Of a stretch of 64,000 bases of DNA, positions 3,921-36,602 are shown piece by piece (the first letter of the stretch is position 1; the number at the start of each line of letters is the position of its first letter). Where the stretch lies: positions 2,199 to 66,198 of the forward strand of contig CAILTG010000055.1 in assembly GCA_903837125.1 (NCBI GenBank), given 5' to 3'. A program made the position numbers and the translations under genes. Source of the stretch: Candidatus Magasanikiibacteriota bacterium. Its GTDB lineage: Bacteria; Patescibacteriota; Patescibacteriia; Magasanikbacterales; UBA922. The notes beneath the pieces were generated by a model. That model worked only from the letters and a program-made list of their open reading frames with translations. It was not told the DNA's origin and did not search any database.

Positions 3921-6449
3921 TTATTTTATAATAATTCCTGTAGTACAAATTCCACCGTTTTCTTGAATGCCAATAATATCTACTAGAGCACCAGTCTGTA
4001 TGGCAGTCTGCAACAATTGCTCTAAATTGACAACTCTTTGATCACAAGTAGTGATACCAGTGATACTGCCCTTAGTTAAGGCCAAATAGTTTGTAAAACT
4101 ACCATAACCATCACCGTCAGCATACTTTTTTACAACTCCTGAAAATCCTTCTGGTGTGCCTGTTAAAGGAACAACTACAGACAGACTTTCTACACAAATA
4201 CCACCATTGGTTTTTGTACCGCTTACTTCCACCTTCAAACCAGTTTTGATGGTAGTATTAATAAAATTTTTGAGATACAAAATGTTTTTATTACAAACAT
4301 CTAAACCAACTTGCACGCCCTTATCTAACTCTATGTAAGTTGAAAAACTACCATAACCGCCATCAGCAAATTCTCCCAAGTATCCACTATAAGTTTCTGT
4401 TACAGATTGCACCACAGCTTCAACAATAAAATTTTGACTATCTCCATAAACTTTATTGTTCACACCAACACGAATGAAATATTTTCCAGGAGCTATGTCT
4501 GTCCCAGGAGTCCAATTTGCCGTTCCTTTAAATAAAGCTGGTACGGTATAGATAGTTTTAACAAAATTTCCCTCTGAGGTATAAAGATCAAGTTTTCCCT
4601 CCTGATTATCCAAACCTTGCAAATCAATTACTTGCCATTTTACCAGATACTCAGTTCCTTGAGTAATTTTTACACCTTCAAAAGGAGCAATAACTTGGAC
4701 TGCATGGCCATCTGATGCCACCACATTAAAATTTTGACTATCTCCATAAACTTTACTATTCACACCAATGCGAATAAAATATTTTCCAGATGGTATATCT
4801 GTTCCAACATTCCAATAGCACGTTCCTTTAGTTAGATTTGGTACAGTGTAAACAGTTTTAACAAAATTCCCCTCTGAAGTATAAAGATCAAATTTACCTT
4901 CTTGATTATCAAGACCCTGTAAATCTACAATTTTCCATTGTATAAGATAATGGTCTCCTGGTTTAATTTGTTCACCTGAATTTGGGGTAATTACTTGAAT
5001 AGCCGAACCAGGTAAGTAATCTTTTATTACCTGAAAATTTAAAGTCACTCTATTATTTCCTTTAAATAATTCTGGAGCGTAATCCTCATAATCAGCAAAT
5101 AAAGTAACAACATATTCTCCTGCCCCTCGGCTAGGAGTAAAAATAAAACTCATGGAACAACTTTGTTGAACTTTTATAACTGAATCATTCCGACAGGTAT
5201 CATCCAAAGGTGCTGTTGCCCGAAAAACAGCTTCACCAGCATATTTTAATTCCATACCAAATGTATGTTTGGCTTCATAATCTTTGGTACCATTATTTCT
5301 AACATTAAACTTAATGGTTACCTCTTCTCCTGGTTTAAAATTTAATTTGCTAAGAACAGCATTCTCAATAACTAAATCAGGAAGATTTTGTATAAGTGAA
5401 TTCTCAATCACAAATACATCACTATACCAATACAACCCTTCACCATTTTTATCAAGATCAATTCTTAATTTCCAAGTGCCTGGCAAAATATTTTTAACAT
5501 CCCAAAACACCTGATTTTGTGTTATATCGCTAGCAGTAAACAAATCCATGGCTTTTTTGCCTGAAGGATACCAAACGCTTATATAACCTGGAGTTCCTGC
5601 GGGAATATTTTCAACATTCCACATTATTTTATATTGAGTACCAACCTTAAGTCGAGTGTTAAAATCAAGATTAGCAAAAACAATTTTTTTATTTCCTTGA
5701 TTTTCTTTATTATTATCAACCTCATTTTTAACAGCCACTTCATTAATCTGGCTTACAGTTTGCTGCTGCACATTTTTTACCATTAATTCTGTAGATTCAA
5801 CCTGACTAACAACTTTTTTAATTTCAGATTCATTAACCGGTAAATTTTGGTCCAACAAACCCTGAAGAACACTATTATAGGTTTCCAAAGAACTTTGAAT
5901 TTTATCTAGAAGTGCATAAACTGATTCCGTATCACCCATTTTTTCTAAATTTTTTGTGGCACTAGCAACCTTAGCAGTTTGTTTCATAACTTGGTTTTCT
6001 GTATCTTTAACCAGTTCACTACTTAAACTTCCTGTTTTGGCAACAACTTGTTGCATTTCTTTAAGACGCAGATTCAGTCTTTCCGCTTCCCAATTTGCTT
6101 TTTCTTTAGTTGAAAATATTAAGGCTGATTTTATTTCTTCAGAAACATTAACCTTTATTGGATAAAGCATGTCTCCTGGCAAAGCACCTTGAGCAGCCCA
6201 AACTGTGCCGCTACCAGCTCCAAAAATAATAACTAAAATCAACATTGCATAAGCAAATTTTCTATTAATTGAGAAAAATGAAAACTGAAATAATGAAGGG
6301 GGTTTTTCTTTTTCCATATTTTTATCTTTAAGAGGATTGGCGTTCAGGTAATCCAAAACTACACCATCCATAATGTTTTTCTCCTCCTCTGTTAAGTAAA
6401 CAGAATTTTTAATTTTTTGTATTTTCTCCGGAGTACTCATACTGAACAA
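3921..6449 (-). CDS. Putative anti-sigma factor. It has a short cytoplasmic N-terminus, a single TM helix and a large extracytoplasmic region with a duplicated ~97-aa beta-rich (Ig-like) domain and C-terminal Gly/Cys repeats
   Basis: 842 aa. The TM segment is FAYAMLILVIIFGAGSGTVWAA at about aa 65-90. It overlaps the 3' end of the upstream ECF sigma gene by 41 nt. There is an internal near-identical duplication (DNA 4441-4500 versus 4733-4790; protein ...VIDLQGLDNQEGK(L/F)DLYTSEGNFVKT(I/V)YTVP... twice). Confidence 0.5.
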   Translation of the reverse strand: MFSMSTPEKIQKIKNSVYLTEEEKNIMDGVVLDYLNANPLKDKNMEKEKPPSLFQFSFFSINRKFAYAMLILVIIFGAGSGTVWAAQGALPGDMLYPIKVNVSEEIKSALIFSTKEKANWEAERLNLRLKEMQQVVAKTGSLSSELVKDTENQVMKQTAKVASATKNLEKMGDTESVYALLDKIQSSLETYNSVLQGLLDQNLPVNESEIKKVVSQVESTELMVKNVQQQTVSQINEVAVKNEVDNNKENQGNKKIVFANLDFNTRLKVGTQYKIMWNVENIPAGTPGYISVWYPSGKKAMDLFTASDITQNQVFWDVKNILPGTWKLRIDLDKNGEGLYWYSDVFVIENSLIQNLPDLVIENAVLSKLNFKPGEEVTIKFNVRNNGTKDYEAKHTFGMELKYAGEAVFRATAPLDDTCRNDSVIKVQQSCSMSFIFTPSRGAGEYVVTLFADYEDYAPELFKGNNRVTLNFQVIKDYLPGSAIQVITPNSGEQIKPGDHYLIQWKIVDLQGLDNQEGKFDLYTSEGNFVKTVYTVPNLTKGTCYWNVGTDIPSGKYFIRIGVNSKVYGDSQNFNVVASDGHAVQVIAPFEGVKITQGTEYLVKWQVIDLQGLDNQEGKLDLYTSEGNFVKTIYTVPALFKGTANWTPGTDIAPGKYFIRVGVNNKVYGDSQNFIVEAVVQSVTETYSGYLGEFADGGYGSFSTYIELDKGVQVGLDVCNKNILYLKNFINTTIKTGLKVEVSGTKTNGGICVESLSVVVPLTGTPEGFSGVVKKYADGDGYGSFTNYLALTKGSITGITTCDQRVVNLEQLLQTAIQTGALVDIIGIQENGGICTTGIIIK

Positions 6450-8603: not shown

Positions 8604-9284
8604 ATGAAAAAATATATCTATTTAATCTTGCTTCTACCAATAACTTTTTTAATGGGCTGCCAAAAAATAAACCCTTTAACTACCTCTACACCAATTACCA
8701 CTAACACCACAACCATGACTGATTTCGAAAATGAAACCATTCCTGAAAACAAAAAACAAACACCAACTGGAATAAAACAAGAAGTACCTCTAAACAACAC
8801 CTTACTTTACAAAGGATCTTGGTTTGATATTAAATATCCAAAAAACTTTACTCCGAGCCCTACAGAGCCACTACAAAATGAAGGTGACAACCAAAAAATT
8901 CTAGCCATTAGAACTAACGAAGCTTATTTTACTGCCCCCGACAAAGCAGTAGAATTTTTTGTCTTTTCACCTATTTGGGGTGGTAATCCAATTAATTATT
9001 TGCAAATTACCTCTGATGAGGAATTAGTGAGTGAAAAAACTTCTATGAGTGGACCAGACTCTAATAAAAAAATTATTAAATGGGTTACTTTAAAAGCCAA
9101 AGATAACACCTATTACCGTTCCTATGTATCTATAAAACAAAGAGACACCAGCAACACTTCTATTGATGATGAACCCGGTCTTCATTATGTTTTTGGCATT
9201 AAATACCAAAACCAAGAGACTTATCAAAAATATAAAAAAGCCTTTGAAGATTTCAAAAGCTCTTTGGTACAGTACGCTGATTAA
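8604..9284 (+). CDS. Putative lipoprotein of unknown function
   Basis: 226 aa. It has a signal peptide with lipobox LMGC and a Thr-rich linker (TTSTPITTNTTTMT). No recognisable catalytic motif. A candidate promoter TTGGAT-16-TATAAT lies at 8550-8577. Confidence 0.5.
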   Translation: MKKYIYLILLLPITFLMGCQKINPLTTSTPITTNTTTMTDFENETIPENKKQTPTGIKQEVPLNNTLLYKGSWFDIKYPKNFTPSPTEPLQNEGDNQKILAIRTNEAYFTAPDKAVEFFVFSPIWGGNPINYLQITSDEELVSEKTSMSGPDSNKKIIKWVTLKAKDNTYYRSYVSIKQRDTSNTSIDDEPGLHYVFGIKYQNQETYQKYKKAFEDFKSSLVQYAD

Positions 9285-13520: not shown

Positions 13521-16500
13521 TTATTTATACAAAACTTCATCTTTAAAAGCCTTCAACATAACAATCAATGTTTGCCTCTCCTGGTAAGAAATATCTTCAA
13601 CTTTAAATTGAGCGTTATCGGCTTTATTTGTCCCCTCTTGTTTGGCTTGGTCAGAATACATTTCACTTAAAAATCTAAGTTTATAAGACATACTTAACAA
13701 CTGTTCACAAATATCAGCCTCATGCTCTGTTAAAACATTATTTTCCATTAAGAAATTTATTTTCCCAACCAAGCTTGCTGGCACTTCTTTTCCTTTGGCT
13801 CTATCTATTTTTCCCTCAGCAATTCCTGAAAATATTAAATAATCAACTTTCATCATAATAGAACGTTGCAAAGAAAATTTTATTCTCTCCATCATTTTTC
13901 CAGTAGAAACATCTTGATACAATTTTTCAAATTGATCTACATAAGCTTCTTTTCCGGGTTTACCAATTTCCAAATCTTTTTGAATAAACAATGGCAAAAT
14001 AGCCACTCTTTCATCATCTTTAAACAACAATTCTTTTGCTTTATCAGTTACACGTTGACCATCGGCAAAAAAAGGTTCTAAATCTATAACTGCAGTTGGC
14101 TCAACTGTTTGTTTACCAGTCCCATCGGCTTTAACTTTTAGTTGGTCTATTGCCGACAAAAATACCAAAGGTTTTTCATCTTTATTAGCCTTTCCAGCAT
14201 CAGCAATAACTTTTTTATCTGCCATTAAATCATTAATAATTACCTTTAAATAATTATTAACAAAATCCTCTAATTTTGATAGGAATTGTATTTTACCTTC
14301 TTCCTCAATAACTGTATCATCTACCAAAAGGTTATAGTCAATATCAGAACCCAAAGCTAATTCAACTCGTCCACCACTACCAGCGATAGCAGGAATAATA
14401 ATTTTTTTAAATTTTTCTAATAAATTAGGATCAAAAACATTACCACTCTCGGCAATAACCCAAGCATCAGCCCATAATCTTTTCATTAATTGTTTTTTTT
14501 GTTCAGTAAACAATTGAGCAATTTCTTGTAAACGCACCGTGATTAATTCAGATGAAGCTACTCTAATTTTTTCTTTTTCATCTGATCCTTTTGAATCCAC
14601 ACTTCCTGAAGAAATTTTAGTAAATAATGCTCTTAACTTTGACTCACTAAAAGGATCAACCAGATGTGCCAAAGCATTAATATATTTTTTAGCTTCCTGC
14701 TTAAAGACTTTCATTTCTTCATCATTTAATTCAACAAATTTTTTACCAAACAAAACATATGGTAATTGATGCTCAAAAAAATTGGTAATAAAATAATTTT
14801 CTTGCAATTCACGATCTAAACCAGAAACTTCAAATGAAGCACTTTCTCCTTTATTTACTTTACGATAAACTCTGTTAGTACCTTCAAAAATATCTTTCAC
14901 AGCCTTAAGCTTTATTTTACTTCTAGTACGACTTCTAATAAATTCCATTATCTCTTCAAAACTACTATCACGATACCATTCTAATGCAGCTTTTTCTTCA
15001 CTTTCCTTACCTTTTTCACTAGGCAATGGTCCTTTATTTAAATCATTACTACTCAAAAATGAAACTAAAACTACCAAATCTTCCTTTGATTCGCCACTTT
15101 GAATCGCCGCGACTGCTTTATCAATAACCATTCTATGCTTAGGACCTAAACCATCACTTTTATAATATTTATAAACACCATTAATTACTTCTCTAGGATA
15201 ACCTAACTTAGACAAACGATTATAAAACATTTTTAATTCATCAAATTCTTGTGGACTAAGCAACATCTTTCCTTCGGCATCCATAACATTAATATATCCA
15301 CCCCAAGTGGCAATATCCTTTTTTACATTATCAATAACCGATTGATTAGAAACTTTAATTACCACACCTGTAATCTCTGAACTCGGAATACCATCCAATA
15401 CCAACTCATGATCTTCACCAATTACCCCAGAATGCTTCGGTGGCCTTTTTTTACCACTTTCACTTTGTCGATAATTTGAATAGACAATGTGAATATCGCC
15501 ATATCCGTCAATATAATTTTTTAATTTTTTTAATCGATCCGAAAAATCAGGAGAATTATTTACGACTGTTACGCGTGACACGTCTGTACCCAGTAATCCA
15601 GAACCATCTCTTTTAGTATCTGGACCTAACAATTCTCCTGGTAAATTACCTGCTTCCAAAATAAGAGCCAAAGATTGCGACTTAGCCCCATGAGTAATTG
15701 CGGCAGTTTTATCCTCACAAGAAAGTAATAATTCTGCTGACGATTTTCCGGCCATCAAATCTTCATAAATTTGTCTATTTCTTTTATCGGCTTCAGCTAA
15801 AATTCTCTCAATTTCTTCAATTTTGCTTGTTTCGCCTTTTCTTCTTAAATTTCTTATTTCTCTTTCATTACCAGAAAACCGTACTACTTCTTGCACATCG
15901 GCTTGAACAATATCCCTTAATTTTCTTTTGAACTCGTCAGAAGTTGATGAGGCTCTTGTACTTTCAACCAATTCTTTATCAAAACATTCTTCTAAATTAT
16001 ACATGTCCAAAAATAACAAACGCTTTTCTGATTCAGAAACATCTGAAGAATCAAACATTCTTTTAATTTCTTGCAATTTTTTTGACATTTCAACCCGCAC
16101 AACTGAAAGAGGTAATTTTTTTTCAGCCAGCTGATTATAAAATTCAAACAACTTATTTATAATCAACCCTTTCATTACTCCCAATTTTTTTGGATCATGA
16201 AAAGTTCTGGCCACAGTAGGATTGAATTGTATAAACAATTCAATTAAACTATTCCTAGCTTTATTTAAAAGTTCTGACTCTTCTTGACTAATCTCTCCTT
16301 GATTCTTTTTCTGGTCCAACTCATCAATTTTTTTACCAATTAAAGTAAAAACTGCTTCACTAAAAACCAATCCTAATTTTAAAAATTTATTAAAATTGTC
16401 AACTAAACTTCCAAAATTATCTTTTAAACTTAAAAGATAACCATTAGAAAGTTCAGTAAAATTTATACCTTTAATTTCTACTTGTGAAAATTTTCTTAAC

Positions 16501-19013
16501 AAATCATAATCATTGGAGCCAATTATTGAAGCTAACAATTCATCCCGTCTTTCTGGATAATCTTCCGATACTAGGTGAATTAAATGCTTTAAATCATCAA
16601 CCCTAAATTTAGAATAATCAGTATTTTTTATCATTCTATCTACAGCCTTTTGTCTTTGTTCTGGTGTAGACTCAATATACCGTCCCCATACCGGTCTTCC
16701 TTCCCCTGTTTCTGAATCTGCTTCCATTCTGGCTAAATAACGGTCAAGTAATGCCAGTACTATTTTTGGGCCACCAATTGTTACAATTGCTTCCGATAAT
16801 TCTTCAATTTTTTCTTTGCTAACTTTATGCTTACCTAAAAATTCTAACCACCGAAGACCAGTAAATTGGTTCATTGACATTAGTTCATCAAGAGCTGCAG
16901 AGGCCTTTTCTCTAAGAATTGCTTCTAAAAGATCATCAAAAAACATATCTAGAGTATCACTCCTATACATAAAACCATTACTAACAAACTCAAGCAGTTG
17001 TTTAGCATGCCCAATTTTTAATAATTTTACTGCTAAACCATACACTTCAGGATCATCCAACTTTTTACCACTATTTATTAACTTAAAAAAATAATTTGAT
17101 AAAATATCCGGACTTCCTTTTTGCAATAAAACTTCTTCAATTTTTTGAAATCTCTGTTCCTTTGGTATCTTTAAAGGATCTAAACCTGTTAATTCTCTAT
17201 AAAATCTCAATTCCGCAATTTCTGCCTGAGATAGTATTCTACCTTCCTCAGAAGCTCCAATTCCATCAAAATATTCTATTCTATCATTGATTTGACTAAT
17301 CAAATTATAATTACGATCAACTAAAAAATAATCACCAAATATCTTATTGATACTTGATTCGGGCAACATTTTTCCCTCAATTACTGAACCTAACAGTATA
17401 GTTATTTCTCTTTCATAATCATCAGCCCTTGTTACATAACCGCAGACTATATTACTTTCTTTACCAACTTTTATTAATAAATCACTAATCCAATCTACAA
17501 AAATACCCTGCATTCTTTCTTTTCTTAATTGCGGATATTTGTTTGGATTTGAAAAATATTGTAAAAATATTTTTACGTCTTCTGCTATGTTGCCAGGATG
17601 TATTTCTCTTGATAATTGACCACTCAATACTTCGTAGGTTTGCTCGACAGTATAATCAAACAATTCTGGATTGGTAGCCATTACCAAAAAATTACTCGTA
17701 CTTTCTTTACATTTAACCAAAAAATTATCAACTTTTTCATCTGGAACCGGCTCATTGGGTGAAAGTCGCGAACTTCTTTGTTCTAAAGTTTTAACACCTA
17801 ATTTCAATTCTTCTTTTGTTAACTTAATAAAATTTAGAAATCCTCTAAGCTGATAATCAGATGTTACACTTAACAAAAGCCTTCTTCTACCGCTTTCATC
17901 TAATTTATCAATTAAATCTTGAAAAAGATTAGCATTATTAATAATATTTTCCGGATTTAGTTTTAAACAAGATTCAAAAAAAGTTTTTCTTTCTTCTTCT
18001 GAAAATAATTCGCTATTCAATCCATTTTCTGCATAACGCCTATCAAAACTATTGTCTACCGGTAAATAAGCCACAAAATCTCTTTTCATTGGATCATCTT
18101 TTAACTTATCAAACCAGACTCTAGCTTCTTGTGATAGTCGATTACGGTTGGAATGATTTGACCAGGTAGTTCCACGATAATTTGTAATATAGGGGGTGAC
18201 TAACAAATCTACATGCGAATTTAATTTATTTCCCAAATCATTATAAATTTCCCCCCATAAATTTCTCGATTCCTCACTACCATTTTCAATTCCGCCTGCC
18301 TGTTCTTTCTTTTTTAGTTCCAATTCTACCAAACGATCTTTAAACTTGTGTATTTCCACAGCCACCCAAATACAAGAATTAAAACCGCGTGCATTTGCAG
18401 GAAAATATTTCCAAATAGCCAACACTTGGTCTAAATCTTCCGCTGTAGGATTTTCCTTTTCAGCAAATGAATGAATATATTTTTCCATCAAAGTTGACAA
18501 CTCATTCAAAAAATAACCCCATTTATCTTCATCAGCCTTATTAGCACCAATATAATCCTTCACAATTGTTTCTAATTCTGCAATATTAGGCTTATCCTTT
18601 TTTCCGTCAAATTTTGATAATTTTCGTACCCGTCCCCTTAATTCTTTAATAACTACCGGACTGTCTTCTCTATCAAATTCTTTTCTTCTTTTTTCAATCT
18701 TTGCTTCTCTCATCAAAATAATTGGTTTTTTTAAAATTTTTAACAATTTTTCCATCATAGTTATTCTTACTTGAACAGCTTCTCTTCTTAAATCTGTAAG
18801 TTCTGCAATCTCCTGTGCCAATTCTGGGTCTGTCCCGATATCATCCATAACTTCAACAACGACTGCTTCAATAGCAGTAATTTCAGCATCAACCTTATGA
18901 GTTAATTCTTCTACCTTCAAATCACCATCTTCTACCGTTGGAGCGGTTTCTGAAGTACCAATTTGAACTTGTTCACTCAAATTTTTAGGTAATTTTTCGT
19001 CTTTACCAGGCAT
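13521..19013 (-). CDS. Giant 1830-aa protein of unknown function with a C-terminal GlnD/GlnE-(DUF294)-type nucleotidyltransferase motif
   Basis: A single uninterrupted ORF. Around aa 1535 it reads IIIPAIAGSGGRVELALGSDIDYNLLVDD (DNA about 14370-14440), matching the hG[GS]x9-13Dh[DE]h Pol-beta-superfamily NTase signature of GlnD/GlnE/DUF294 (GGYGRxELxxxSDIDL). No other domain was recognisable by eye. Confidence 0.65.
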   Translation of the reverse strand: MPGKDEKLPKNLSEQVQIGTSETAPTVEDGDLKVEELTHKVDAEITAIEAVVVEVMDDIGTDPELAQEIAELTDLRREAVQVRITMMEKLLKILKKPIILMREAKIEKRRKEFDREDSPVVIKELRGRVRKLSKFDGKKDKPNIAELETIVKDYIGANKADEDKWGYFLNELSTLMEKYIHSFAEKENPTAEDLDQVLAIWKYFPANARGFNSCIWVAVEIHKFKDRLVELELKKKEQAGGIENGSEESRNLWGEIYNDLGNKLNSHVDLLVTPYITNYRGTTWSNHSNRNRLSQEARVWFDKLKDDPMKRDFVAYLPVDNSFDRRYAENGLNSELFSEEERKTFFESCLKLNPENIINNANLFQDLIDKLDESGRRRLLLSVTSDYQLRGFLNFIKLTKEELKLGVKTLEQRSSRLSPNEPVPDEKVDNFLVKCKESTSNFLVMATNPELFDYTVEQTYEVLSGQLSREIHPGNIAEDVKIFLQYFSNPNKYPQLRKERMQGIFVDWISDLLIKVGKESNIVCGYVTRADDYEREITILLGSVIEGKMLPESSINKIFGDYFLVDRNYNLISQINDRIEYFDGIGASEEGRILSQAEIAELRFYRELTGLDPLKIPKEQRFQKIEEVLLQKGSPDILSNYFFKLINSGKKLDDPEVYGLAVKLLKIGHAKQLLEFVSNGFMYRSDTLDMFFDDLLEAILREKASAALDELMSMNQFTGLRWLEFLGKHKVSKEKIEELSEAIVTIGGPKIVLALLDRYLARMEADSETGEGRPVWGRYIESTPEQRQKAVDRMIKNTDYSKFRVDDLKHLIHLVSEDYPERRDELLASIIGSNDYDLLRKFSQVEIKGINFTELSNGYLLSLKDNFGSLVDNFNKFLKLGLVFSEAVFTLIGKKIDELDQKKNQGEISQEESELLNKARNSLIELFIQFNPTVARTFHDPKKLGVMKGLIINKLFEFYNQLAEKKLPLSVVRVEMSKKLQEIKRMFDSSDVSESEKRLLFLDMYNLEECFDKELVESTRASSTSDEFKRKLRDIVQADVQEVVRFSGNEREIRNLRRKGETSKIEEIERILAEADKRNRQIYEDLMAGKSSAELLLSCEDKTAAITHGAKSQSLALILEAGNLPGELLGPDTKRDGSGLLGTDVSRVTVVNNSPDFSDRLKKLKNYIDGYGDIHIVYSNYRQSESGKKRPPKHSGVIGEDHELVLDGIPSSEITGVVIKVSNQSVIDNVKKDIATWGGYINVMDAEGKMLLSPQEFDELKMFYNRLSKLGYPREVINGVYKYYKSDGLGPKHRMVIDKAVAAIQSGESKEDLVVLVSFLSSNDLNKGPLPSEKGKESEEKAALEWYRDSSFEEIMEFIRSRTRSKIKLKAVKDIFEGTNRVYRKVNKGESASFEVSGLDRELQENYFITNFFEHQLPYVLFGKKFVELNDEEMKVFKQEAKKYINALAHLVDPFSESKLRALFTKISSGSVDSKGSDEKEKIRVASSELITVRLQEIAQLFTEQKKQLMKRLWADAWVIAESGNVFDPNLLEKFKKIIIPAIAGSGGRVELALGSDIDYNLLVDDTVIEEEGKIQFLSKLEDFVNNYLKVIINDLMADKKVIADAGKANKDEKPLVFLSAIDQLKVKADGTGKQTVEPTAVIDLEPFFADGQRVTDKAKELLFKDDERVAILPLFIQKDLEIGKPGKEAYVDQFEKLYQDVSTGKMMERIKFSLQRSIMMKVDYLIFSGIAEGKIDRAKGKEVPASLVGKINFLMENNVLTEHEADICEQLLSMSYKLRFLSEMYSDQAKQEGTNKADNAQFKVEDISYQERQTLIVMLKAFKDEVLYK

Positions 19014-19017
19014 AAAA

Positions 19018-19197
19018 TTACTTTAAATCAATAATCTTTTTTAATACTTGTAATTGTAAAAGTAAACTTTTTTTATCATGGTAACGCTTTAAAATTTCTA
19101 ACTGTTTCTTTCTAATTTTGGTAATTTCCAAATCAAACCATTTTTCAAGGTCTTGAATCTTTTTTATCTGTTCTGGAGTAAGTTTCTTTTTAGCCAT
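19018..19197 (-). CDS. Small 59-aa coiled-coil-like protein translationally coupled to the giant gene (4-nt gap)
   Basis: MAKKKLTPEQIKKIQDLEKWFDLEITKIRKKQLEILKRYHDKKSLLLQLQVLKKIIDLK. Its stop TAA sits 4 nt before the giant-gene ATG. An extended -10 (TGcTAAAAT, plus coordinates 19208-19216) lies about 10 nt upstream, which would make it near-leaderless. It is below the ORF-track cutoff. Confidence 0.35.
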   Translation of the reverse strand: MAKKKLTPEQIKKIQDLEKWFDLEITKIRKKQLEILKRYHDKKSLLLQLQVLKKIIDLK

Positions 19198-19388
19198 AAC
19201 TGCTTATATTTTAGCAAAAAATAGGAAAAAAATAAAGAGGATAGACTAAACTTATAAATTAACTAAAATTGACAAACAGACATTTACACAGGTTGAAAAA
19301 AAATACATATTAAGGTAAAATTAAGACTAAAGTAAATTAATTTACAAAACCTTAATCTCAGCCCTAATTCCTAATAATTACCAAAAAT

Positions 19389-20060: not shown

Positions 20061-23000
20061 TCAACCTAGCAGCTCTTTTAAACCCAATAAATCCAAATTT
20101 ATTAATTTTTCTTTATTAATTTTCCCTAAAGTAACCAAACCTCTTTCTTTTAATTCAACATCATCAATTTCACCAGCTAATAATCTTTTGGCAACATTTT
20201 CATCAAGCGTAACCATTTCTTCCATCACTGTTCTTGATAGATTATCCAAGTGATCGGCCGCGGTAACAGTTGCCTTCAGTAAATATCTGAACTGCGAGTC
20301 CATCTTTTCCCCACTTTCTTCTAAAAGAGCATAAAGTATTTTATTGGCTTTATCTTTGGTTGAAACATCACTCCCAATGATTTCTTGGATTTTCCCTTCA
20401 TCCCAACTAACACTAGCATATTTTTTTACCAATTCAGAAATTTTTAGCAAACATTTTTCCGGACGAAGTTGCAATCCAAACAAACTGGTTAAAAAATCTC
20501 TAAAATCTTCCGCGCCATCATATTCACCTTCATACTTTTTCTTGAGATGATTAGGCATTGATTCGGACTTAGAGCATCCCACACTTCCCAGATCAATAAA
20601 GGTTGCTTTTGGTTTTAATAAAGGCACCACATCTAAATAAAAATTACCGGAATGCAAATCGGCATGAAAAATTCCACCCGTAGTAACTTCCCTCAAAAAT
20701 TCCAAACCCAATTCGGATTGAAGTTTTCCCACATCTAGATCTAAAATTCTTTTTTCAATGTCCTGCAATCGTTCTTTCCCATAAAGTTCAGCCAACCTTT
20801 TGCCAATCTCTTTAATTTTTTCAACATCACTTTCTTCAACTGCTCTTTGAAATTCCTGAATTTCTTTCAACGAAAGACCATGCACAAATTCTTCAACCAT
20901 TAGACCAATATCTTCATCTTCTTCTGAACCTGGATAACTTACTTCATTAATCTGTAACGGAGCGGTAACTCCCAAAAAAACAGTTTCAGTACTGCCGGAT
21001 TTAAATGACAATTCTAAAGTTGCCTCCCGTTGTTTCAAAGATTCTCCCATTTTCCTTTGATTTTCGGCCTCATTAACAAAAGACAATTCATCAATAACCA
21101 ATCTTTCAATTTCATCCAAAAGATAACTAGGAACATTAAACTTTTTTGACTCCAAAACAGCAACAATTTTGCGCAAAACTTCCATGTCAGCGACAAAATT
21201 CTTATCAATGTTTGGTTGTTTGCCCTTTATAGCTACTATTTGATTGTCTTCGGTAAGCCCCTTGGCCACTTCCTTAATAGAAGCACTACCAACAATCTCT
21301 CCTATTTGTCTTATCATCCCTTCATCGCCATGCACCAATCCCGCTGATTCAGCATAGGCCAATAATCCTCGTTTGGAAAATGGTTTGGTTTTATCTTTAA
21401 GACCGGATAGTTCTCTCCTAATTTTTTCCGGTAAAAGCCCTGGCTGTTCCGACAATACTTGTCCTGCTTTTATCCCCACAACACCAATCTGTTCCAACAA
21501 AAGCTTAATAATTTCTCCAGCGCTCATTTCCTTTCCCTCTTTTTTGGTTGCGCCGACTGCTTCAACAATATTCACCATGAGCTCTGCTCGACGAGCCGGT
21601 TCTTTCTGTTGAACAAAAAGTTCTCTAAAAATTGTTTCCAAAAGTTCTTTACCGCGTTGATTGGTTTCATGTTCTTCAGGCAGACTATCATCTATTCTCT
21701 GCTCTTTAAAAATAGATTTAAAAACATTATCAACAGTGTGTCTAATTAAATCATTTTCCCTTTCCCACATTTTCCAAGGATAAATATTCTCTACATCTTC
21801 GTCGCTGGCATCATCAGCAAGAGAAGTATCACCTCCCTTTGCCTCCATCACTCCATTTTGTCCCAATAATAAATCATATAATAAATGGCGCCGTTCGTTA
21901 GGAGTCATTTCCCACAAAACGTTTGCTCTTTCTTCCAATGATATTCCAGTCTGTTCAACTGAAAATTTTTCCGCAAAAGGTTGTTTTCCACCCAGCATCC
22001 AAATTAAATAATCGCTTCTCTCAATGGGATTTAATCCTGCTATATAAAACCTAAATTTTTCAATTGATGAAAATTGTCTCCCAACCATTTTTGATTCATC
22101 TCCTTTAGGCCATTTTACTTCCTCAGAATAGCGCATCATCCAAACTTGTCTGATTTGATCGGGGGTCTGAGCCAAATCCATTCCGATTGACTCTAAAACA
22201 TAATCCTTTTCCCAGGTTGGTTCTTCATATAATGAATTTATCCGATGCAAATACTCATCAAAAGTTCCTGGATCCTTTTTTATATTTTCTTGAAGTTCTG
22301 GCCACAGCGCTATTCTTTCCACTTCCATTAATAATCTTCTCAAAACCGGCTTCGCATCTGGACTAATTTTTTCAGACATGGCTTGTTCTATTTTGTGACG
22401 GATTAAATAAGCCTGTTCTTTTGGCAATTTTTCTAAGGCCTTAACGACATTCTCAACCTTAAATATTCTATATTTCTTTAAAAAGGAGATGTCTTTATAC
22501 AAAGGAAAATGTTCCAAAACTTCATCTAAATCAATATCTGTTTTATTCAATTGCACCCCCAATTTTTCAAGCAAATCTGCCCCTAAAGTAGTTTCTAAAA
22601 TCTGCCAAATTTCCACTGCCAATTGATTTTTAATAAATACATCTCTTAAAGGATGGCGGTCAGGCAGATCTTCTAAAACCCGTACCGACAATTTTTCTGT
22701 GTCTGCTAAATTTTCGGCTTCATCCAAAGCCTTTGTATGCCAATCCATTAAAGGTTGTGAAACCCATCTGAGACGATAAACTGGTCCAATTTCTAACCGA
22801 CTTTTTTCGTTTTCTACCACCTGATCTGAAAAAACCATTACTTCGCTCTCTTTCGCTAGAGTTAATGATCCCAGTCTTTCTTCTGAACTAGTAGATAACA
22901 AATTATACCTTTGCAAAAGTCTACTTTGAAGTTCTGAAAATTCTCTAGCCTTATCATAAGTTGTGTTAATTTTCTTTTTTCTTACTTTATTCACCTTTAC

Positions 23001-26000
23001 GTCATATTCAGTTTGACGTAAATCAAATTTTCCTCTCTCTTGTATCGTGTACTTTCCACTTTGTACATTTACAAGATGTGCTACGTCGTAAATAATAATT
23101 CCTCGATCAGACAAACTTAAAACTCCTCCATCATTTTGAAGATTTTCAGCGTTTAAGTCTGTGTCTGCCACTTTAAATTCTATCCTTTCCTCGCACGGCA
23201 ACCTAACCACTACAGTTAAGGATCCTTTGCCATTCATGGTATGTGCGAAACTCTCTGGGTTTAAAATCTCCACATCCTCTTGCTGTAAGGCTGCCACAAA
23301 AAATTCCTTTTTTTTCTTCCAGCTTTTTTCTGTCTGCTTAGCATTTTCAATCTGGCTGGAAATTTGATTCCTTTCTGAGCCTTCATGAGCAAAACTAGTA
23401 AAATGCTTCGCCCATTCTTCAATCTCTTCTAGTGTTTGAACACCTAAAAATTGCATTTTTTTATCCAAAATAAATTCTTTAAAAAAGCCCGGTTGCATTT
23501 TTTTTATTTCTTCCAAATTACCACGATCTTCCACCACTCGTTTCAACTCACTGCGAAATTTAGGCAGATCTTGTCGAAATTTTCCCATCTTTTCAGCATT
23601 TGGTTTATCAGAGCCTACTAAAGTTTCAATATTCTTAACAATAAATTCAGTGGCATCACCATTCCAGACATCTTGCATAAATAACTGCCAAGAAAAACCC
23701 GTAAACTGTAAATCTATATTATCACGTTTATAAATTCGACTGAGAAAAAAGGCATACTCTTCATATAAATGTTTAGGAAAATTCTCTCTCTCAATAATTT
23801 TTTTAGGTTTTTTTCTATCTCTATTATCTATCCTTTCAACATCAACCCCTAGCCCGGCAGGATTCAGCTGTATCCATTCCCAATGACTCATTTGTTCATC
23901 TAATTTTTTAAATCCCTCTATCTGCGACCAATCCTCTCTATAAACAACAGACAACTTTCTCCAAAATTCTATAAAAGTAGAATAGAATTTTTCTTTATTT
24001 TTTGGGTGAATATCGTCAGTAAACTGTGTAAAAGAAACAAAATTACCCAAACACAAAGCTTTTATTTTAAGAAAAAAATAATCACCTTCAGAATATTTGC
24101 CTTGATATTTTTTAACAAAAAAATCCTTCAATTCTTTAACTCCTGGCCTTGATATTTTTTCTAAATATTTTAAAACATTTTCAGCTGAAGTAAATGGCTG
24201 CCCAGTTTTATCTCGATAACTTAAAGCCGAATCTTTCGGCCGATGATGTAACCAAACACTACCATCGCTAAAACAAGTAGCTTCGTTCTCTGTTTCTTTA
24301 TAAATTTTATCCTGGTCTGAATTACCATCCAGCCCTCTTACCAATTCAATTCTTTCAAGAACATCCTCAAGCGTATATGAAGATTTTAAAACTTGCCATA
24401 GTAACTTAGAAATGTCTCCTGCATACTCTCCTTGTTTGCCAATCTCTAAAAATCCCGTTTGCATTACCTTGGCCCCCTCATCTACTAAGTGGGAAATATT
24501 GTGTATAGCTGTGGTGCCGTAGTCATTTGTTTGAAAATTACGTTCTTCTTTAAAAAAATTTTGCAAGGTTCTATCAGTAAGCAGTCCCTCACTGTAGGCC
24601 ACTTCAATATAACCACGCACCTGCTCAACAAAATTTAAAACTTTCCCAGCCAGAGCTTTTAACTTTGTTTCTTTAAACTTTCTTTTTAAATCTTTGCTTT
24701 GCAATCCAAAAAAAATAGCTAATTTAGAGGCGATGTCTGTTTCTAAAATATGACTAGTATAAACTCTTTCAGCCGCCTGCTCTGAACCGACTTGTTCTGT
24801 TTTATCAACAATTTTTTTACCATACTCAAGCCACAAACGTTCTTCAGTTGCTGCCAAATGAGTATCAGATACCCGCAAGCAGGCACTATTTTGATTTCTG
24901 GTTTTTCCTCCTGATAATTGAAAACCATAAAGATATTTTTCATTTAATTTCACATCACAGTCTTCGGAAAGACCAAGATCTAACTGGATACCGGGGGGCG
25001 CTGTTGGATCAAGTTCAAAACGACGTAAATATTCAATTTGAGTGTTATATTCTTCATCATCTTTAGCTTCTAACCCGAAAGCTATTACAGACAAAATTTC
25101 ATAGTGAAGTTTATTTTGTCTATTTCTAAAAATACAGGAACCATCTGTAGAGAACACTTTATGTAAATTTTTACACTCCAAAATTTGATTCACCTCATTT
25201 AAAAATTTAATATCAACTTTATCCAATTGTCTAAATATAAGCAATCGACCATTTTCTTCATCTATATTGTTATAAAGATGACTAAGTACAAACCTTAAGG
25301 CTTTATCTGAAATATTTTCTAAACCTTCATGTTTTAAAAATTCTCTATAACTCATTACGGTCTTTTCCTCCAATGTTTTTGAAAATTCTCTTACTAGTGG
25401 AGGTTGATCAGTTGATTTTTTTGACCAACTATCAAATTCTAAATTTACATAATATTTTGTTGTGGCATACACAGTCTTACCAACTATTTTTGAAATTTCT
25501 TCCTCTATCTCCACCTCTTCTAGGGGCGATTCTTCTTCCCTTCTTTTGTGTACCCGGCCAGCTAAAGGTAAACTGTCAAGAATAGCCAATTTTGCAGCTT
25601 CGGCTCTTGGTTTTATTATTTTCTTTTTTATTTTACTTTTTACCAACTTACTTGTTTCAACAGCTAATATATTGTTATTGTACTGATTCCTTGTTTCAAG
25701 ATGCAAAAATTCAAAAAATATCTTCTTTAAACAAAACAACTTATCAGCTCTTCCCAGAGGCGCACCTTGATAATAACGTTTGGAAATTAAATCCCAAAAA
25801 TCACTTGTGTATTCATCTTCTTTCAACCAATCTTCAAAATCTTCTGAATTCAGTTCTCTACTTTCTAAATCATTCTTAGCCACCATTTCTTTTCTCTGTT
25901 CTTTTTCTCCAAGTATTATTTTACTATTTACTTCCATTTTTTTTATTTCGTCCGGAGTATTGGCCCAAAGCACTCTCTGTTCAATTGTCAATTCTTCATC

Positions 26001-27461
26001 TGAAACCTGACCCATGGGTTGTTTAACCATTTTATACTCAGCCTCACTCCAAACTTCTCCCTGGAGATTTGGGTAAGACAAACCAACCTGCAACTCCTCC
26101 CCTTTTTCTGTGGCTGCTTGTTTTTGTTTTTCAGCTATTTTCAAAGCTAAAAGAAAACTATGTAATTTTTCTAAAAAAAGTTTTCGGTAACCCATTGTTC
26201 CATGAGCAAATTCCTGAACCCTAAATTCCTCTTGCAAAACTCTGGAACCACCACTTTCTAAACTTCTCTGGCCTTCAACAGTAAGATAATATTGATACCC
26301 ATTTAATTCTGCCATTATTTCTAATAATTCTGGAACTGTTTTGTCAGAGAATTCACTTCCTCTGGCTTCTGGTTTTTTATCTTTCTCTCTTATTGTAACC
26401 AAAGCCTCCTTAACTTTATCTGGAAAAGGACTCATTTTCCTAGCCGCATTTGGCAATGGCAAATCTGTTGAATTAAATAACTTTTCTAATTCAACTATTC
26501 TGCTTGCAGTGGGCGGATGCGAAGATCCAAAAATAATACCCAAACTAGAGCCGTCACTTTTCCCGAAATGATGAAACGCTTCTATTAAACCTCTTGGGTT
26601 ATAGCCACTAGCATCGGCAATTTTCATTCCCTCGGCATCAGCATCATATTCCAGTCGTTGACTCTCTTCAGGACTTTTATCCTCTTTAAAATATTTTGGC
26701 TGTAAAAGGTGAGAAAATTCATGAGCTAAAACACCGGCCAACTCATCTATGGTGTCCATATTATTCACCAAACCCAAGTTAATAAAAATTGGCAGTTCAA
26801 TTTCCTCTTTACTACCAGATTGTAAATAATCTTTTAACAAAACACCGCTATCATTTCTCAAAACAAAAGCATTTATTGAACGATCCTTGGTTAAGTGCAC
26901 TAAGGGCATTAAATTTTTTAACCCGGCGGCCCTAAATAAATTTTGAACAATATTTTGTAAACAGCTTCTTACTTCTTTAAAAGCACACAATAATTCTTTG
27001 CTCTCCACAGGATGAGAACCTTCGGACAATTCTGAGCTATAATCTTCAGACTTTACGCAATAGTCACGAATAGGGTTGCGGGTTTCATCTACCAATTTTG
27101 CTCTTGCTTCTTTAAATTTTTCCAATCTTTCAGATTTTTTACCGGACAAAGTTAAGTCCCTATCTAAACTATCGTGTAATTTTTTTACAGCCCCTGCTTC
27201 TACAGCCGATAGTTGTTCTTTAATTTCTGCTAATCTTTCCAAATCAACATATTCTGTGCCTTTCACACGAATAACGCAGGTAGCAAAAACGCCACTCTTT
27301 GTTGACAAAGCATCACAGATTTTCCTTAAATTTGGATCACTAATATTCATCCGAACTAAAAAAGTATCCAAATCTTTTTTTAGATACAAAACTGTTCCTT
27401 TTTTGCGCCTCTCCCATTCTTTCCCTCTTTCGGCGCGTCTATGTGTATAGTCCATATACAA
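20061..27461 (-). CDS. Giant 2466-aa multidomain protein with an N-terminal M48-type HExxH zinc metallopeptidase module and a C-terminal UbiB/ABC1-like atypical protein kinase module
   Basis: At aa about 235-330: LAGVLAHEFSHLLQ ... QRLEYDADAEGMKIADASGYNPRGLIEAF (the M48/BepA-like HExxH plus ExxAD..G...GY(D/N)P pattern). At aa about 2150-2400: LKDKTKPFS...IGEIVGSASIKEVAKG...QIVAIKGKQPNI... and GIFHADLHSGNFYLD...IDLGSVG (UbiB signatures FHADPHPGN and DFG; DNA 20641-20690). No TM helix is apparent. Confidence 0.65.
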   Translation of the reverse strand: MYMDYTHRRAERGKEWERRKKGTVLYLKKDLDTFLVRMNISDPNLRKICDALSTKSGVFATCVIRVKGTEYVDLERLAEIKEQLSAVEAGAVKKLHDSLDRDLTLSGKKSERLEKFKEARAKLVDETRNPIRDYCVKSEDYSSELSEGSHPVESKELLCAFKEVRSCLQNIVQNLFRAAGLKNLMPLVHLTKDRSINAFVLRNDSGVLLKDYLQSGSKEEIELPIFINLGLVNNMDTIDELAGVLAHEFSHLLQPKYFKEDKSPEESQRLEYDADAEGMKIADASGYNPRGLIEAFHHFGKSDGSSLGIIFGSSHPPTASRIVELEKLFNSTDLPLPNAARKMSPFPDKVKEALVTIREKDKKPEARGSEFSDKTVPELLEIMAELNGYQYYLTVEGQRSLESGGSRVLQEEFRVQEFAHGTMGYRKLFLEKLHSFLLALKIAEKQKQAATEKGEELQVGLSYPNLQGEVWSEAEYKMVKQPMGQVSDEELTIEQRVLWANTPDEIKKMEVNSKIILGEKEQRKEMVAKNDLESRELNSEDFEDWLKEDEYTSDFWDLISKRYYQGAPLGRADKLFCLKKIFFEFLHLETRNQYNNNILAVETSKLVKSKIKKKIIKPRAEAAKLAILDSLPLAGRVHKRREEESPLEEVEIEEEISKIVGKTVYATTKYYVNLEFDSWSKKSTDQPPLVREFSKTLEEKTVMSYREFLKHEGLENISDKALRFVLSHLYNNIDEENGRLLIFRQLDKVDIKFLNEVNQILECKNLHKVFSTDGSCIFRNRQNKLHYEILSVIAFGLEAKDDEEYNTQIEYLRRFELDPTAPPGIQLDLGLSEDCDVKLNEKYLYGFQLSGGKTRNQNSACLRVSDTHLAATEERLWLEYGKKIVDKTEQVGSEQAAERVYTSHILETDIASKLAIFFGLQSKDLKRKFKETKLKALAGKVLNFVEQVRGYIEVAYSEGLLTDRTLQNFFKEERNFQTNDYGTTAIHNISHLVDEGAKVMQTGFLEIGKQGEYAGDISKLLWQVLKSSYTLEDVLERIELVRGLDGNSDQDKIYKETENEATCFSDGSVWLHHRPKDSALSYRDKTGQPFTSAENVLKYLEKISRPGVKELKDFFVKKYQGKYSEGDYFFLKIKALCLGNFVSFTQFTDDIHPKNKEKFYSTFIEFWRKLSVVYREDWSQIEGFKKLDEQMSHWEWIQLNPAGLGVDVERIDNRDRKKPKKIIERENFPKHLYEEYAFFLSRIYKRDNIDLQFTGFSWQLFMQDVWNGDATEFIVKNIETLVGSDKPNAEKMGKFRQDLPKFRSELKRVVEDRGNLEEIKKMQPGFFKEFILDKKMQFLGVQTLEEIEEWAKHFTSFAHEGSERNQISSQIENAKQTEKSWKKKKEFFVAALQQEDVEILNPESFAHTMNGKGSLTVVVRLPCEERIEFKVADTDLNAENLQNDGGVLSLSDRGIIIYDVAHLVNVQSGKYTIQERGKFDLRQTEYDVKVNKVRKKKINTTYDKAREFSELQSRLLQRYNLLSTSSEERLGSLTLAKESEVMVFSDQVVENEKSRLEIGPVYRLRWVSQPLMDWHTKALDEAENLADTEKLSVRVLEDLPDRHPLRDVFIKNQLAVEIWQILETTLGADLLEKLGVQLNKTDIDLDEVLEHFPLYKDISFLKKYRIFKVENVVKALEKLPKEQAYLIRHKIEQAMSEKISPDAKPVLRRLLMEVERIALWPELQENIKKDPGTFDEYLHRINSLYEEPTWEKDYVLESIGMDLAQTPDQIRQVWMMRYSEEVKWPKGDESKMVGRQFSSIEKFRFYIAGLNPIERSDYLIWMLGGKQPFAEKFSVEQTGISLEERANVLWEMTPNERRHLLYDLLLGQNGVMEAKGGDTSLADDASDEDVENIYPWKMWERENDLIRHTVDNVFKSIFKEQRIDDSLPEEHETNQRGKELLETIFRELFVQQKEPARRAELMVNIVEAVGATKKEGKEMSAGEIIKLLLEQIGVVGIKAGQVLSEQPGLLPEKIRRELSGLKDKTKPFSKRGLLAYAESAGLVHGDEGMIRQIGEIVGSASIKEVAKGLTEDNQIVAIKGKQPNIDKNFVADMEVLRKIVAVLESKKFNVPSYLLDEIERLVIDELSFVNEAENQRKMGESLKQREATLELSFKSGSTETVFLGVTAPLQINEVSYPGSEEDEDIGLMVEEFVHGLSLKEIQEFQRAVEESDVEKIKEIGKRLAELYGKERLQDIEKRILDLDVGKLQSELGLEFLREVTTGGIFHADLHSGNFYLDVVPLLKPKATFIDLGSVGCSKSESMPNHLKKKYEGEYDGAEDFRDFLTSLFGLQLRPEKCLLKISELVKKYASVSWDEGKIQEIIGSDVSTKDKANKILYALLEESGEKMDSQFRYLLKATVTAADHLDNLSRTVMEEMVTLDENVAKRLLAGEIDDVELKERGLVTLGKINKEKLINLDLLGLKELLG

Positions 27462-33832: not shown

Positions 33833-33920
33833 TGGCGGAGAGGGCGGGATTCGAACCCGCGAGGGGTTGCCCCCTGCAGCTTTAGCAAAGCTGGACGATA
33901 GACCGCTCTGACACCTCTCC
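33833..33920 (-). tRNA. tRNA-Ser (anticodon GCT), CCA encoded
   Basis: Acceptor GGAGAGG/CCTCTCC, anticodon stem CAGCT/AGCTG with loop TTGCTAA, a long variable arm (CAGGGGGCAACCCCTC), T arm GCGGG-TTCGAAT-CCCGC, and 3' GCCA. Confidence 0.85.
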
Positions 33921-34007
33921 ATTTACAACATACAAAATACACATAATAAAATACAAAATACATAAAAAAATTGTATATTACTCCATGTACATTGTATTTC
34001 ATTTTTG

Positions 34008-34094
34008 CGGAGAGAGTGGGATTTGAACCCACGGAGGACTTTCATCCTCAACAGTTTTCAAGACTGTCGCCTTAAACCACTCAGCCATCTCTCC
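34008..34094 (-). tRNA. tRNA-Ser (anticodon TGA)
   Basis: Acceptor GGAGAGA/TCTCTCC, anticodon stem ACAGT/ACTGT with loop CTTGAAA, long variable arm, T arm GTGGG-TTCAAAT-CCCAC. Confidence 0.85.
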
Positions 34095-36511: not shown

Positions 36512-36598
36512 GGAGAGATGGCCGAGTGGTTTAAGGCAGCAGTTTACTAAACTGCCGTCCCTTCACAGGGACCGAGGGTTCGAATCCCTCCCTCTCCG
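36512..36598 (+). tRNA. Class II (long-variable-arm) tRNA-Ser-like gene with an atypical anticodon loop TTACTAA (anticodon ACT by standard numbering)
   Basis: The body is near-identical at the 5' end to tRNA-Ser(TGA): GGAGAGATGGCCGAGTGGTTTAAGGC. The anticodon stem is GCAGT/ACTGC. The loop TTACTAA is the Ser(GCT) loop with G34 changed to A. It has a long variable arm and T arm GAGGG-TTCGAAT-CCCTC. Confidence 0.65.
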
Positions 36599-36602
36599 CA
36601 TA

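Follow-up and report, generated by a model that had tools for sequence, protein, structure and literature searches.

Two adjacent minus-strand genes at 13521-19197 of a 64,000-nucleotide (nt) stretch of DNA from a Candidatus Magasanikiibacteriota bacterium (contig CAILTG010000055.1; the whole stretch is here called the window) probably make up an accessory cassette. The downstream gene encodes a giant protein that joins an ADP-ribosyltransferase (ART)-like domain to a GlnE/DrrA-type nucleotidyltransferase (NTase) domain, and the upstream gene is a small open reading frame (ORF) whose product would be its accessory partner. Patescibacteria are believed to live on other microbes, but little is known of the molecules that they deploy on their hosts, and most of their giant genes have no annotation. 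The giant described here is one of about two dozen in its family, and its ART-like module recurs in about 70 further large proteins.

Two predicted enzyme domains in the conserved C-terminal core

An exhaustive HMMER search with residues 631-1830 of the giant recovered 98 proteins, 24 of them at E<1e-30. Three indexed homolog searches (full length, C-terminus, and family alignment) returned the query alone, a single-protein genome scan returned nothing, and a viral collection contained no relative. Family members range from about 1500 to 3600 amino acids (aa). BLAST mapping places what they share in one unbroken C-terminal core of about 920 residues (905-1830), and their N-termini are unrelated; with about 20 giants, the BLASTP alignment starts at residues 883-927. 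Residues 153-904 align to no family member and have no Pfam or NCBIfam match. Within the core, the linker that joins the two enzyme domains is conserved across the family, with motifs that include GYPxxVI..VY.YY and DLAxLVxFLxxNDLN.

A sequence-only reading of the window had assigned AGSGGRVELALGSDIDYNLLVDD, residues 1544-1566 of the giant, to a GlnE/GlnD/DUF294-type NTase and had found the downstream sequence compatible with a helical substrate-binding domain. Profile searches bear out the first assignment. Against the Pfam gathering cut-off of 21 bits for DUF294 (PF03445), the window protein scores 22.0 bits on its 379-aa C-terminus, 19.1 at full length, and 16.9 on a 331-aa fragment. The cut-off is exceeded in five of nine homologs (best, 32 bits), and DUF294 is matched in all 25 family members at E<=0.01. 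Some members additionally match NTP_transf_2, DUF294_C, GlnE, or SidM_N; the GlnE and DUF294_C matches are weaker than those to DUF294, and the SidM_N match is weak and confined to one member. Searches against PDB sequences gave NTase matches that were insignificant or, at best, borderline.

The catalytic Asp pair is conserved in the homologs: an alignment of 25 C-terminal modules shows no variation at G1545, S1556, D1557, D1559, D1605, G1607, Q1635, P1639, K1712, R1717, K1722, and R1780 and almost none at A1606. Carboxylates of the D1605 type serve as metal ligands in Pol-beta NTases, and D1605, which lies on a predicted strand (model residues 105-107), would have this role in the giant. The spacing of G1545, 11 residues, D1557, I, and D1559 fits G-X11-D-X-D, the motif of the SidM/DrrA ATase domain (PMC12409994).

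Structure prediction points the same way. Residues 1500-1830 are modeled with a GlnE/DrrA-type adenylyltransferase fold, in which an NTase core is followed, from about residue 1711, by a helical subdomain that matches HEPN domains and corresponds to the substrate-binding domain of the earlier reading. This layout agrees with the description of GlnE, DUF294_C, and DrrA as NTase-HEPN proteins (PMC3710099), and the best structural matches of the region include both GlnE domains. A single NTase domain is detectable across the 1830 aa, not the tandem pair of GlnE, and Pfam searches of the giant found no second NTase, ACT, HD, cyclic nucleotide (cNMP)-binding, or CBS domain.

The same reading had found the preceding 1500 aa unassignable, which proved too pessimistic: residues 905-1830 are conserved family-wide, and residues 1072-1272 are confidently predicted to adopt an ART fold (predicted local distance difference test score [pLDDT], 93.0). 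The model has the ART core fold, and its nearest relatives are the NAD-binding lobe of Tpt1/KptA and DarT, at TM-scores of only about 0.45; the top Tpt1 structure, 7yw4_A, is a 120-residue chain of which 108 residues align. Motifs in this stretch are ADxRNR, (T)HG..L..IL..GN..GE.LG, D.S, H.L...G.PSTEI, and NGFYIP..D..G.LLF.PEEFD, and the segment ahead of the domain is a single predicted helix with the ADxRNR motif. Sequence profiles missed the domain: residues 1072-1451 have no Pfam match even at E<=10, 10 other carriers of the module have no ART family match (nine without any match at E<=0.01), and the family profile gave no PDB sequence match. Neither the N-terminal winged-helix lobe of Tpt1 with its R-H-R-R tetrad nor a PTS_2-RNA Pfam match was detected.

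Five residues of the model, H1108 (beta1, in HGA), E1127, D1144 (beta2), H1202, and E1213, are candidates for a pocket. H1202 is invariant and E1213 is present in 36 of the 39 sequences of one alignment. A wider comparison of 91 sequences shows strict covariation of positions 1108, 1127, and 1144, which read H/K-E-D in 72; all nine sequences with Q1108 read Q-[A/G/S]-H, and the remainder are mostly single substitutions or gapped rows. H1202 is kept throughout. Such behavior is expected of one functional pocket, and the window giant carries the majority state, H-E-D-H-E. We regard the five as putative lining residues of the NAD+ site. Known ART triads are of the H-Y-E, R-S-E, and H-H-h types (PMC8120803); H1108 ends beta1, the usual place of the first triad residue, and H1202 and E1213 are candidates for the others, with Q or K replacing the beta1 His in some members.

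The ART-like module is all that about 70 further large proteins (P0041-P0109, outside the window) have in common with the giant. Each has a long N-terminus, the module, and a tail of 230 to 440 residues, and the tails fall into two unrelated groups, neither with a significant Pfam or PDB sequence match. One group has GSNxG..YVKF..NWD..RIDNG motifs, with weak HipA_2 matches in 3 of 12 members; the other has a GSTxRGT..DFDF motif typical of Pol-beta NTases and no database match. Going by these motifs, we tentatively consider the tails kinase-like and a second Pol-beta NTase-like type, respectively.

A rival reading that we consider distinctly unlikely is that the giant is a conflict enzyme directed at nucleic acids and not at proteins. 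Its ART-like domain would ADP-ribosylate DNA or RNA ends or bases, and its NTase would add nucleotides to, or otherwise modify, the same nucleic acid in an attack on a host bacterium or phage. Nucleic acids are the substrates of the nearest ART structures, Tpt1/KptA and DarT (PMC8120803), the cassette is accessory and lower in GC than its flanks, and the module is joined elsewhere to toxin-type-like tails (the weak HipA_2 matches and the second NTase-like motif). However, the RNA-binding N-lobe of Tpt1 with its tetrad was not detected, and the best Tpt1 match is a chain of 120 residues; no DarG-like macrodomain lies nearby; the NTase is nearest to protein AMPylases and not to nucleic-acid polymerases; and PADLOC was negative.

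The small basic ORF and the N-terminal segment of the giant

Read directly, the small ORF ends as had been claimed, with a TAA stop codon followed by 4 nt (tttt) and the ATG of the giant, which is in a different frame. At the local base composition, the chance of an open frame is about 0.003 for 59 codons and about 1e-77 for 1830 codons, and the source annotation likewise calls the small ORF as a gene (P0002). An extended -10 proposed just upstream fared less well. The string TGcTAAAAT is present, at a placement that would imply a very short or absent leader, but we give it little weight because promoter-like consensus matches in this AT-rich region are no more common than in shuffles (23 found versus 25.7 expected). 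The scan, which also covered terminators, gave nothing above shuffles.

Homologous loci were drawn from one-genome-per-species contigs, and six loci are informative here: the window and five others with a readable giant start (L001, L002, L004, L006, and L007), of which L006 is readable only with TGA as a sense codon. A coupled basic ORF of 52 to 59 aa is present in three of the six, namely the window, L001 (57 aa, ending 1 nt ahead of the giant ATG), and L004 (52 aa, ending 5 nt ahead). In the latter two, as in the window, the ORF has a stop codon before the giant and is out of its frame; net charge across the three is +6 to +9. Pairwise z scores against composition-matched shuffles are 7.7 for L001 and L004 and 4.4 and 4.1 for the window copy, and in a leave-one-out profile search L001 and L004 find each other (E of about 2e-4). 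The copies are thus clearly conserved in position, size, and charge and marginally in sequence. The earlier proposal of a small co-expressed partner is partly supported, with a coupled ORF in half of the informative loci and none in L002, L006, and L007.

What the three loci share is the start of the giant. A profile built solely from the N-termini of L001 and L004 picks up residues 33-152 in the window giant (E of 1.7e-4) as well as P0013, P0016, and P0020 but not L002, L006, or L007; BLASTP of the window segment to P0015, the L004 giant, gives an E value of about 5e-7. The N-terminal segment is therefore common to the window, L001, L004/P0015, P0013, P0016, and P0020, and the small ORF is present in all three informative loci that have it and in none of the three that do not. 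The first 80 residues of the three giants are strongly acidic, with a net charge of -11 to -14 (-14 in the window). We infer that the basic small protein partners with the N-terminus of the giant.

It is highly improbable, in our view, that the 59-aa ORF is instead a type II style antitoxin that neutralizes the enzymatic domains, or that it is not a gene at all. A small upstream ORF that ends 4 nt before the start of the giant is the classic antitoxin-first layout, and the domains of the giant are related to the toxins DarT and DrrA. Yet L002, L006, and L007 keep every catalytic residue without a coupled small ORF, so the small ORF is unlikely to encode an obligate antitoxin of the catalytic core, and it has no DNA-binding or known antitoxin domain and no Pfam, NCBIfam, or PADLOC match. 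In favor of its being no gene, the window copy fell short of significance in the leave-one-out test, and no Shine-Dalgarno sequence can be made out. Against this stand the low chance of an open frame of 59 codons, the E value at which the L001 and L004 copies find each other, and ORFs of matching size and charge that precede the giant ATG by 1 to 5 nt in three lineages, each out of the frame of the giant.

Three other explanations of the small ORF were set aside. A frameshift that had split off the N-terminus of the giant was rejected: a stop codon is present in each of the three lineages, and both the spacing and the frame offset differ among them. The idea of a ribosomal or other known small protein was dropped for want of a Pfam match, and a profile search was negative for copies fused to, or elsewhere near, the giants that have no coupled copy. 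Two observations on the upstream regions can be added. In the Saccharibacteria homolog L002, a very basic 54-aa ORF (4938-5102, net charge +12) shares the strand of the giant and ends about 160 nt before it; this ORF matches nothing in Pfam and does not resemble the other small ORFs. In L001 (2323-2706) and L004 (2394-2816), the small-ORF and giant pair is immediately preceded by a UPF0102 (YraN-like) gene that has no counterpart there in the window.

Table 1. Features of the cassette and its immediate upstream region, in window coordinates
Feature	Position	Strand	Basis and remarks
Giant ORF, 1830 aa	13521-19013	minus	ORF calling
Small ORF, 59 aa, Lys-rich, basic, net charge +9, read as helical	19018-19197	minus	ORF calling and source annotation
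Extended -10-like string TGcTAAAAT	19208-19216	minus	Direct read; 10 nt upstream of the small-ORF ATG; weak evidence
Residues 33-152, charged N-terminal segment of the subfamily	18558-18917	minus	Profile search and BLASTP
Residues 153-904, non-conserved	16302-18557	minus	No homolog or domain detectable
Residues 905-1071, start of the family-conserved core, into the ADxRNR helix just inside the ART model	15801-16301	minus	BLASTP and consensus
Residues 1072-1272, predicted ART-fold domain (Tpt1/DarT-like)	15198-15800	minus	Predicted fold
Residues 1273-1499, family-conserved linker joining the two enzyme domains	14517-15197	minus	Consensus
Residues 1500-1830, predicted GlnE/DrrA-type adenylyltransferase	13524-14516	minus	Pol-beta NTase subdomain and helical HEPN-like subdomain from about residue 1711
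Catalytic NTase motif G1545-X11-D1557-X-D1559 (GSGGRVELALGSDID)	14337-14381	minus	25-sequence alignment
D1605-A-G, predicted third metal-binding carboxylate	14193-14201	minus	25-sequence alignment

Distribution and genomic context

All six homologous loci found in the one-genome-per-species contigs come from Magasanikiibacteriota, Saccharibacteria, Parcubacteria, or a metagenome-assembled genome (MAG) labeled Peribacteria. Except for Peribacteria, a class within the candidate phylum Peregrinibacteriota, these are members of the Patescibacteria group. The giant homolog in the MAG labeled Candidatus Peribacteria (L006, 318-5477, and L008, 1-3648) contains 38 in-frame TGA codons, some at family-consensus Gly positions. 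These point to genetic code 25, and the MAG may be mislabeled or its code wrongly assumed.

None of the homologous loci has the neighbors found in the window, where the cassette lies between a DHH/DHHA1 gene and clpP; the downstream neighbor is the convergent DHH phosphoesterase gene of a conserved backbone. We compared this backbone across related contigs, meaning contigs of organisms with a ClpP that shares at least 90% identity with that of the window. The order KH-S16-x-SMC-DHH-ClpP is kept in five of them, with a gap of 35 to 131 nt from DHH to ClpP, and since DHH is directly beside ClpP, the small ORF and the giant are missing together. The cassette is thus dispensable and not core. Two further contigs have ClpP followed by VanW and lack a second giant that lies beyond clpP in the window. 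Given these DHH-ClpP and ClpP-VanW adjacencies, both giants are lineage-specific insertions. The cassette has a GC of 0.314 versus 0.37 to 0.38 in its flanks, and its ends carry no terminal repeats or mobile-element marks, only chance AT-rich 9-mers.

The second giant (20061-27461, minus, 2466 aa) has a Peptidase_M48 domain near its N-terminus and an ABC1/UbiB atypical kinase-like domain near its C-terminus. The sequence-only reading had singled out the two giants flanking clpP as a striking arrangement of signaling-type enzymes. The second giant does carry recognizable enzyme domains, whereas the synteny led us to reject a functional link to clpP; the position of the giants around it is incidental, with no demonstrated functional meaning.

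The presence and absence of the cassette also bear on whether the giant is a housekeeping regulator, which we consider unlikely. Its NTase would then reversibly adenylylate or uridylylate an enzyme of the cell's own, and the ART-like domain would tune it as a non-catalytic sensor of NAD+ or ADP-ribose. Glutamine synthetase and PII are under NTase control of this kind by GlnE and GlnD, and DUF294 proteins are likewise regulatory. Both GlnE domains are among the best structural matches, the ART triad is non-canonical with a beta1 His that is Q or K in some members, and the giant has neither a secretion signal nor an immunity-like neighbor. A core regulator is nonetheless hard to reconcile with a cassette that is absent from five related contigs with the same backbone, with unconserved N-termini and lengths of about 1500 to 3600 aa, or with a lone NTase beside which none of the partner domains of GlnE, GlnD, or DUF294 proteins was detected. 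The invariant H1202 and the coordinated remodeling of the pocket also suit catalysis better than passive binding.

Elsewhere in the window, two more adjacent giants lie on the minus strand (46911-52532, 1873 aa, and 52581-62243, 3220 aa), neither with a Pfam match and the former with no PADLOC match. Together the four giants occupy about 28 kb of the 64-kb window; the idea that they are paralogs of one another was dropped after mutual comparison. ARAGORN called a tRNA-Ser with the unusual anticodon ACT (36512-36599, plus), a tRNA confirmed there by Rfam, and tRNA-Ser(GCT) and tRNA-Ser(TGA) lie close by at 33833-34094. Two ORFs, 8604-9284 (plus, 226 aa) and 30492-31907 (minus, 471 aa), have no Pfam match at E<=0.001. 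The window has low GC and encodes a DUF5667 protein; together with its gene content, these features would fit an origin in the same radiation as the homologous loci. A partial ClpP (P0006, HYE60025.1) at least 90% identical to that of the window is labeled Candidatus Kapabacteria at NCBI. This label clashes with the Patescibacteria-like character of the window and all homologous loci, and the contig may be mis-binned.

Proposed role and comparison with known systems

The reading that we find best supported is a bifunctional modifying enzyme on a long variable scaffold. An accessory, conflict-type, or host-interaction function seems more likely to us than that of a core regulator, because the organism can do without the cassette, the N-terminus changes rapidly, toxins and effectors are among the closest structural relatives, and the ART module is reused with other tails that resemble toxin-type enzymes. 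The giant would be made in the cytoplasm as a multidomain protein whose C-terminal 920 residues are the conserved catalytic end. Using D1557, D1559, and D1605, the NTase would take ATP (or another nucleoside triphosphate) with Mg2+ and attach the nucleoside monophosphate to a hydroxyl group on a target macromolecule, in the manner of GlnE with glutamine synthetase and DrrA with Rab1, with the HEPN-like helical subdomain presumably inactive. The ART-like domain would bind NAD+ in its pocket (H1108, E1127, D1144, H1202, and E1213) and ADP-ribosylate a protein or nucleic-acid target, and the long, fast-evolving N-terminal 900 residues would provide targeting or regulation. The 59-aa basic protein would be co-translated from the same transcript and would bind the acidic, subfamily-specific N-terminus as a chaperone or adaptor and would not inhibit the catalytic core.

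Several observations weigh against this reading. The giant has no signal peptide and no predicted transmembrane helix (highest Kyte-Doolittle 19-residue window, 1.36), and the cassette has no secretion signal, immunity-like neighbor, or defense-system match; searches of PADLOC-DB 2.0 (E<=0.01) and NCBIfam were negative for both the giant and the small ORF. None of the classical triads (H-Y-E, R-S-E, or H-H-h) is clearly recognizable in the ART module, and the window giant has N1242 where 37 of 39 members have Pro. Its full-length DUF294 score is below the cut-off (19.1 versus 21 bits). The fold does not fix the direction of the NTase reaction, because the N-terminal domain of GlnE, which has the same fold, removes AMP (PMC12409994). 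In the leave-one-out search, the small ORF of the window ranked 10th with a non-significant E value of 0.65, and the three-versus-three co-occurrence over six loci could equally be explained by shared ancestry.

A bolder version of the accessory reading would be a long shot. The family could then consist of Patescibacteria-specific, multi-warhead effectors, in which a newly recognized ART clade provides the common module and is combined with swappable ATP-dependent transferases: an AMPylase of the GlnE/DrrA type, an NTase of a second type, or a kinase like HipA. Both enzymes would share one host-bacterium target, perhaps modifying it in sequence to make a compound nucleotide-linked modification, and the small basic protein would be a dedicated adaptor that loads the acidic N-terminus of the giant onto an episymbiont export route.

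Our literature search, whose coverage was incomplete, linked Candidate Phyla Radiation (CPR)/Patescibacteria with ART enzymes, giant proteins, or AMPylation and found no description of this family or architecture. The folds themselves are known; the ART branch is missed by current profiles, and the combination of an ART with a GlnE/DrrA-type AMPylase is undescribed as far as could be found. The giant can now be tested, with two defined enzyme domains, named catalytic residues (D1557, D1559, and D1605; H1108, H1202, and E1213), and a candidate partner. If the domains are active, they would add a new branch to the ART superfamily, extend GlnE/DrrA-type AMPylases to candidate phyla, and give access to candidate effector chemistry between symbiont and host. 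Should they prove inactive or purely regulatory, a gene family that was blank before still gains a useful annotation.

Among known systems, the AMPylase domain of Legionella pneumophila SidM/DrrA shares with the giant the G-X11-D-X-D motif, the layout of an NTase with a HEPN-like helical part, and its setting as an enzymatic module within a larger multidomain protein; the one weak SidM_N match in the family belongs here as well. Identity is only about 15%, and the domain is C-terminal in the giant, with nothing after it, but N-terminal in DrrA. The giant has no detected guanine nucleotide exchange factor (GEF) or phosphatidylinositol 4-phosphate (PI4P)-binding Pfam domain and no Dot/Icm context, and it comes from candidate-phylum bacteria, not from an intracellular pathogen of eukaryotes. 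cNMP-binding or CBS domains typically precede DUF294, whereas none was detected by Pfam in the giant. The likeness to GlnE and DUF294/DUF294_C proteins lies in the DUF294 match of all 25 members, the weaker GlnE and DUF294_C matches, and the conserved catalytic carboxylates. GlnE, however, has adenylyl-removing and adenylyl-transferring NTase domains in tandem, joined by a regulatory linker (PMC12409994), whereas the giant has a single NTase and is encoded in an accessory cassette, not by a conserved nitrogen-regulation gene.

The ART-like domain resembles Tpt1/KptA and DarT in the His at the end of beta1 and, in many module members, an H-x-[S/T]-type context (PMC8120803). It differs in having no PTS_2-RNA or DarT-family Pfam match and in an H/K-E-D-H-E pattern that maps poorly to H-H-h or H-Y-E. 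Unlike DarTG, the locus has no adjacent or fused DarG macrodomain antitoxin, and unlike the antitoxins of type II systems, the small ORF does not track the catalytic domain. Polymorphic toxins, with a conserved N-terminal trafficking domain, a variable C-terminal toxin, and an immunity gene downstream, show the reverse of the variable N-terminus and conserved C-terminal core of the giants; the gene downstream of the window giant is the DHH phosphoesterase of the backbone.

Two further comparisons concern the overall design. In the Legionella SidE family, ARTs of the R-S-E type are paired with a phosphodiesterase; as in the giant, a large protein with long non-catalytic regions places an ART fold beside a second nucleotide-dependent enzymatic domain. 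The giant would instead pair a Tpt1/DarT-like ART with a Pol-beta AMPylase, and it shows no evidence of secretion. Small helical partners encoded upstream of LXG toxins bind the N-terminal domain of the toxin for type VII export. No type VII secretion genes were seen, and binding of the giant by its partner is putative. The likeness is one of analogy only: in both cases, a small protein encoded directly upstream of a toxin or toxin-like giant tracks the N-terminal region rather than the catalytic domain.

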